Assembly: GCF_024298765.1 (NCBI RefSeq)
Contig: NZ_CP101210.1
Length of the DNA: 64,000 nucleotides
Reading direction: 5' to 3' (one strand)
From: Escherichia coli
GTDB taxonomy: Bacteria; Pseudomonadota; Gammaproteobacteria; Enterobacterales; Enterobacteriaceae
In this document: one piece after another, positions 16,033 through 16,127 of the stretch
Position numbering within the stretch: position 1 is the stretch's first letter
Layout: the number at the start of each line of letters is the position of its first letter
The notes under the pieces: generated by a model
Database searches by the model: none
Seen by the model: the letters and a program-made list of their open reading frames with translations, nothing else
Told to the model about the DNA's origin: nothing
Program-made: the position numbers and the translations under genes

Positions 16033-16127
16033 TCTTACATAGCTGGATATGGCGTCAGCCGTATCCAGCGATATCTTTTACTCGAAGGTATTACACCTGA
16101 CGGACCCGCAATTTTCAGGACATTCTA

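Follow-up and report, generated by a model that had tools for sequence, protein, structure and literature searches.

When relA and mazG stand side by side in an E. coli genome, has the mazEF type II toxin-antitoxin (TA) module been lost from between them, or was it never there? We asked this of the relA-mazG junction in a stretch of E. coli DNA of 64,000 nucleotides, which we refer to as the window. TA systems occur erratically across E. coli, and in many strains relA-mazG has been described as an "undisturbed bicistronic operon" (Fraikin, Goormaghtigh & Van Melderen 2020, J Bacteriol review, PMC7167474; that review cites Fiedoruk et al. 2015 and Pandey & Gerdes 2005 for the distribution and for the undisturbed relA-mazG). 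According to the same review, TA insertion sites are plastic, unoccupied sites can hold REP sequences, and parDE is found at the relA-mazG site in Salmonella. A chromosomal TA cassette has been described as a promoter plus ORFs without a terminator, such that the downstream gene becomes co-transcribed (PMC5120126).

The window lacks mazEF between relA and mazG

The original prediction, made from the letters of the window, held that the relA stop and the mazG start are separated by 95 bp that contain an inverted repeat and no ORF. ORF calls and NCBIfam models show these coordinates to be right (Table 1). The pair is flanked by rlmD and pyrG, and NCBIfam equivalog models back all four gene names. 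A Shine-Dalgarno-like AGGA lies at 16117-16120, 7 nt upstream of the mazG ATG. A single ORF, of 50 aa (16049-16201), reaches into the spacer and overlaps mazG in another frame. It is spurious: we rejected it as a gene on account of in-frame stops in ST131 and E69 and the loss of its start codon in a divergent Escherichia lineage. No MazE-coding ORF fits the 95-bp spacer, and K-12 MazE (82 aa) and MazF (111 aa) have no tblastn match in the 64-kb window (E≤1e-3). An Rfam search of 15800-16400 returned no known RNA family at E≤1. The relA-linked mazEF type II TA module is absent from the window, as these searches support.

Table 1. Features of the relA-mazG junction, in window coordinates
Feature	Position	Strand	Basis or description
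relA (GTP diphosphokinase)	13798..16032	+	744-aa ORF; NCBIfam NF008124, 1678 bits
relA stop codon	16030-16032	+	TAG
relA-mazG spacer, unoccupied allele of the mazEF insertion site	16033..16127	+	95 bp
Empty-allele-specific segment, about 53-58 bp	16033..16090	+	dissimilar to the K-12 mazEF segment; collinear with Citrobacter REP-bearing spacers
Degenerate REP-type palindrome; putative relA 3' stabiliser or partial terminator	16042..16069	+	12-bp stem, GTCA loop; T-rich tail 16070-16079
mazG leader common to both alleles, CACCTGAC..GACCCGCAATTTTCAGGAC	16094..16127	+	alignment with K-12 and Citrobacter
mazG (nucleoside triphosphate pyrophosphohydrolase)	16128..16919	+	263-aa ORF; TIGR00444, 414 bits

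It had also been claimed that the strain as a whole lacks chromosomal mazEF, and this is supported by the empty tblastn of the window together with a proxy genome. The closest available genome, strain 104, has 2 SNPs relative to the window over the first 48.7 kb and differs in its CRISPR spacers. We searched it by sensitive blastn with a chimeric query, in which the window junction and mazG are joined to the reverse complement of K-12 mazEF. The single match in strain 104 was the junction, with no mazEF-like DNA elsewhere at blastn sensitivity. Whole-genome absence for the window's strain rests on this proxy and covers MazE/MazF of the K-12 type.

The two alleles differ by replacement

The gene order relA-mazE-mazF-mazG, which the prediction had given for K-12, is what we saw in K-12 W3110. 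When the junction is aligned to the K-12 relA-mazEFG region, homology ceases exactly at the relA stop and restarts about 35-40 bp before the mazG ATG. Between these breakpoints the window has ~55 bp with a hairpin, where K-12 has ~690 bp containing the mazEF promoter/operator, mazE and mazF, and so the alleles differ by replacement and not by a clean indel. The flanks are orthologous, with about 98% identity outside a mosaic patch in mazG (see below), and the last ~35-40 bp of the mazG leader are common to the two operons. In contrast, the ~690-bp cassette with the P2/P3 promoter-operator region, mazE and mazF is present in K-12 and absent from the window.

The private segment of the window shows no trace of this cassette. 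Its local alignment score against the K-12 mazEF segment is 19, a value reached by 223 of 1000 shuffles, and at this shuffle level neither the mazEF promoter/operator (the palindromic "alternating" operator upstream of mazE) nor remnants of it were found in the private segment. As a positive control for the local alignment, the E. albertii spacer scores 43 against the K-12 segment, with 0 of 1000 shuffles reaching that value. These comparisons support reading "absent" at this junction as never occupied, or ancestral-type, rather than deleted.

The spacer hairpin is a slightly degenerate REP

The inverted repeat was recovered as a 12-pair stem that begins 10 nt past the relA stop. Its arms, GCTGGATATGGC and GCCGTATCCAGC, form 7 G-C pairs and one G-T pair around a GTCA loop and are followed by GATATCTTTT. 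The entire spacer has a folding energy of -33.3 kcal/mol (z = -5.2 versus shuffles). REPs are typically found just 3' of coding sequence, within operons or between genes, and their GTAG head is the tetranucleotide recognised by RAYT/TnpA-REP. Like the REP/BIME elements of Enterobacteriaceae, the window hairpin is an imperfect palindrome placed just past a stop codon in an intergenic spacer, and it aligns to canonical REPs both in the window (position 9529, score 14) and in outgroups (E. albertii REP, score 17), where the shuffle maximum is 8 in each case. Scores this far above shuffles identify the hairpin, at the level of sequence, as a slightly degenerate REP. It has the ~30-40 nt length and GCCGGATG.../...CATCCGGC-type arms of the family, with one C-G pair changed to T-A in each arm (GCTGGAT/ATCCAGC versus the canonical GCCGGAT/ATCCGGC). 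Its extragenic position is that of the Citrobacter REPs, and Salmonella arizonae keeps part of one there. The conserved GTAG head is missing from the window hairpin, which has ATAG instead; GTAG is present in Citrobacter and in a divergent lineage labelled E. coli, L005. Within the window, the exact hairpin variant occurs once and canonical REP heads three times in 64 kb.

We also compared the stem between the window and L005. Five substitutions separate them and all pairing is kept, once through a two-sided change. In a covariation test, 12 of 12 pairs are kept with one two-sided change and three wobble changes, a result that comes from two distinct sequences only and that 252 of 500 shuffles reach. 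A terminator consensus scan passed 1 site versus 0.4 expected, and the T-run starts 6 nt past the stem, a spacing less than ideal for an intrinsic terminator.

Outgroups argue that the empty spacer is of the ancestral type

Among 80 outgroup loci, which are the Enterobacterales loci recovered with MazG and range from E. albertii, Citrobacter and Salmonella arizonae to Pectobacterium and Serratia, none (0/80) has MazE/MazF between relA and mazG. The private segment aligns collinearly to the spacers of Citrobacter and, in part, of S. arizonae; against the Citrobacter gillenii relA-mazG spacer it scores 27, with 0 of 1000 shuffles reaching this value. The Citrobacter spacers consist of one or two REP palindromes directly past the relA stop, of which S. 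arizonae keeps part of the first only. From this alignment, the tail of the second Citrobacter REP appears to be the source of the mazG leader shared by both E. coli alleles. Closer to the window, the same 95-bp spacer is present in two divergent Escherichia labelled E. coli, L006 (relA about 96% identity) and L005 (about 92%).

E. albertii NBRC 107761 shows what a deletion at this site looks like. Its spacer (L004:2240-2500) is 261 bp long, has no mazE or mazF and carries REPs mid-spacer. K-12 sequence is recognisable at both ends: the mazEF promoter/operator region in the first ~50 bp and the stretch downstream of mazF in the last ~85 bp (scores 43 and 44; 0 of 1000 shuffles each). By this sequence evidence the spacer is a true mazEF deletion scar. 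The scar implies that the mazEF cassette is old in the genus.

Together, the absence of mazEF from 80 outgroup loci, the collinearity with Citrobacter REPs and the different appearance of a genuine scar in E. albertii suggest that the window carries an unoccupied, ancestral-type relA-mazG spacer, the REP part of which was replaced by the mazEF cassette in other lineages. We put the probability of this reading at roughly 88%. It is to be weighed against two points. The similarity between the hairpin and Citrobacter could partly reflect membership in the REP family and not positional orthology. Further, the E. albertii scar makes mazEF-type sequence old in the genus, so that in any single E. coli lineage, the window's included, the change may have run in either direction.

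The empty allele is common in E. coli

A survey of the same junction across E. coli found the private segment of the empty allele in 1,000 of 5,426 complete genomes, once each and chromosomal throughout, a frequency of ~18% that applies to complete genomes, a clinically biased sample. The K-12 mazEF segment was matched at ≥80% coverage in 4,416 of the 5,426, with 0 matches on plasmids. The chimeric query gave an independent second estimate. It found 9,847 chromosomal places in 5,425 genomes, and at two places per mazEF-bearing genome and one per genome lacking mazEF this total splits into about 4,422 and about 1,003 genomes, respectively; the mazEF-segment count puts the empty-allele total at 962-1,010. 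In 60 rows sampled across the ranking, every empty-junction genome had one place and every mazEF-bearing genome had two. Overall, about 4,420 E. coli genomes have mazEF, in every case at the relA-mazG locus.

Carriers of the empty allele include ST131, Nissle 1917, ABU 83972, clone D i14 and ST117/phylogroup G. The exact allele of the window is found in 78 genomes, mostly poultry or APEC isolates. Two strains with 100% matches to it are G12, which is O78:H4, ST117 and phylogroup G (PMC11067769), and APEC O2-211, which is ST117 (PMC6256689). By these matches the window belongs to the ST117/phylogroup G lineage, an empty-allele lineage.

Phylogroup B2 is mixed. APEC O1 (L086), 536 (L087) and UTI89 (L088:25214-25797, NC_007946.1) carry mazEF between relA and mazG, so a rule that B2 lacks mazEF does not hold; NRG857c also carries mazEF at relA (PMC7232551). 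The mazEF genes of B2 strains are 98.2-98.5% identical to those of K-12, which equals the identity of their flanks, and the flanks of mazEF-positive and mazEF-negative B2 strains are 99.5-99.7% identical to each other. This pattern argues that both alleles are old and that the breakpoints of exchange are very tight.

About 10 genomes fall in neither allele class. We examined one, E. coli SW07163, and rejected it as a third allele because it is an IS1 rearrangement of a mazEF-positive locus. There (L089:3905-4971), IS1 adjoins an intact mazF, mazE is missing and relA has been moved off by the IS1-associated rearrangement, leaving an apparently antitoxin-less mazF beside mazG.

A mazEF-less relA-mazG is already published and is neither rare nor new, and the general statement of PMC7167474 is borne out by our counts. 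The window, with the same locus in the same state and no essential difference, is one more instance of the undisturbed relA-mazG of mazEF-less E. coli described there. The review names UTI89 as its example; however, the UTI89 RefSeq record has mazE and mazF at this position, and true empty-site examples are ST131, Nissle 1917, 83972, clone D i14 and ST117. A similar situation is the ccdO157 site in the folA-apaH spacer (Mine et al. 2009, as described in PMC7167474), where a TA cassette is likewise present or absent in a spacer that has REPs when unoccupied, although both the locus and the TA family are different; the comparison is at the level of the review's description. Our analysis adds the precise breakpoints, traces the hairpin and the leader to REPs, puts the frequency at ~18% of complete genomes, shows B2 to be mixed and sets the site apart from the scar of E. 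albertii. These details refine the published statement and leave its substance unchanged. They also mean that K-12 MazEF physiology, including mazG-mazEF co-transcription, is not transferable to ST131, ST73 (Nissle/CFT073-like) or ST117, major pathogenic lineages that either never had the module or have since lost it.

Other routes to an empty junction

Could the window's lineage have had mazEF and lost it? One route would be homologous recombination that imported the empty allele from another E. coli lineage; the allele would still be of the ancestral type, but the lineage would have gone through a loss. The near-identity of mazEF-positive and mazEF-negative B2 flanks indicates that swaps with tight breakpoints occur, an imported mosaic tract 215 bp downstream in the window's own mazG speaks for recombination at the locus, and the E. 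albertii scar makes mazEF old in the genus. However, the window contains nothing that polarises the event, and with the outgroups, L005 and L006 all empty, simple retention is equally or more parsimonious. We consider such a swap unlikely, though by no means far-fetched.

A second route, in-place deletion of mazEF that left the 95-bp spacer as its scar, is the first impression on comparing the window with K-12, and E. albertii provides a genuine case. However, the private 58 nt are dissimilar to every part of the 731-bp K-12 segment, and the REP palindrome sits where Citrobacter and Salmonella have theirs, a sequence that a deletion cannot create. Given no residual similarity to the K-12 segment, we rejected a deletion scar for the window and regard it as scarcely credible.

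Relocation of mazEF elsewhere in the genome or onto a plasmid would also empty the junction, and it gains some plausibility from seven plasmid records with a ~70%-identical mazF-like gene and from PemK-like second copies in some E. coli (PMC7232551). Against this, strain 104 has one place only, places and totals balance among the sampled genomes (chimeric query, 60 rows), full-length mazEF matches are all chromosomal, and the 64-kb window has no MazE/MazF; relocation is very improbable. An assembly or sequencing artefact that collapsed the locus has practically no chance, as about 1,000 independent complete genomes share the identical junction.

Proposed wiring of mazG

Returning to the ancestral-type spacer as the preferred reading, we propose the following model. 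The relA-mazG spacer of Enterobacteriaceae as a rule carries REP palindromes, either one or two. The hairpin of the window would be what is left of the first REP, and the mazG leader would be the remaining tail of the second. K-12-type E. coli instead has a cassette of ~690 bp, comprising the mazEF promoter/operator, mazE and mazF with no terminator, which replaces the ~55 bp that separate the relA stop from the leader. Both alleles are probably old and segregate within E. coli, even inside phylogroup B2.

In this model the hairpin and its T-rich tail would act as a 3' stabiliser of the relA mRNA, as a leaky (partial) terminator, or as both. Transcription reading through from relA would supply mazG, with the two genes forming one bicistronic relA-mazG unit, and the cell would have no relA-linked MazF activity. 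A crude consensus scan of 15700-16300 found no sigma-70-like promoter for mazG. Expression by read-through would be in keeping with the published "undisturbed bicistronic operons" (PMC7167474). In K-12-type strains mazG would instead lie behind MazE/MazF-autoregulated promoters, whereas mazG of the window would not, and this wiring agrees with the view of TA cassettes as promoter plus ORFs without a terminator (PMC5120126).

A bolder idea is that the two alleles, the empty REP-bearing spacer and the mazEF cassette, are both ancient and have coexisted in Escherichia from a time preceding the diversification of E. coli, maintained by selection on mazG wiring or on MazF itself, with breakpoints within a few tens of bases of the cassette. 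We hold this to be distinctly doubtful. If it were true, the selected contrast would be between mazG read-through past a REP hairpin and a MazE/MazF-autoregulated promoter, and in about a fifth of strains MazG would be linked to the stringent response in a different way.

Additional observations at the locus and in the window

The mosaic tract in mazG spans window positions 16343-16616. Here 320 bp contain 26 differences (about 8%) from each of ST131, K-12, L006 and E. albertii, compared with about 1.5-2% differences in the remainder of relA-3'/mazG. It changes MazG at S103G, E106G, S109R, R137S and A183V and marks a ~78-genome clade of the ST117 type. Judged from its divergence, the tract looks imported from an unsampled Escherichia relative.

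The relA-mazG spacer holds other cargo outside E. coli. In Buttiauxella agrestis (L040:841-2428), an Hcp/TssD gene (TIGR03344, E = 3e-56) comes first in the spacer; behind it lie a 261-aa ORF and a 109-aa membrane ORF, both without a family match, and the insert looks like an orphan T6SS Hcp-effector-immunity cassette. Superficieibacter electus (L017:2066-2404) has a weak homologue of the 109-aa ORF, with 29% identity (E = 0.003). These inserts, along with parDE in Salmonella (PMC7167474), lend some support to the spacer as a recurrent landing site for small toxin-type cargo and suggest an insertion hotspot.

The ~70%-identical mazF-like genes on plasmids are each paired with an AbrB/MazE-family gene (NZ_CP046026.1:61242-61489 and six others). 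Apart from these seven, the E. coli collection has no match to K-12 mazEF outside the chromosome. In the window itself, a Hok/Gef-family type I toxin gene lies at 39620-39772, between cysH and cas3 (annotation of the identical strain 104 sequence), so the region is not devoid of TA-type genes.

By proxy annotation, the window also has a full type I-E cas operon with a CRISPR array at 39967-49630 and a second array at 22408-22924. casA (42765-44327) is intact in the window and has an internal stop in strain 104 (SNP at 43432, G versus A). For cas3, the strain 104 annotation gives a frameshift; in the window the cas3 frame is open, offset by one base from the annotated start. CRISPR spacer content differs from that of strain 104 from 48778 onward. 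Finally, at 20229-21258, ygcG (a TPM-domain protein) and a small adjacent ORF are frameshifted pseudogenes in the annotation of strain 104, whose sequence is identical here, and UTI89 has a larger LemA/TPM gene set at the ygcG position.
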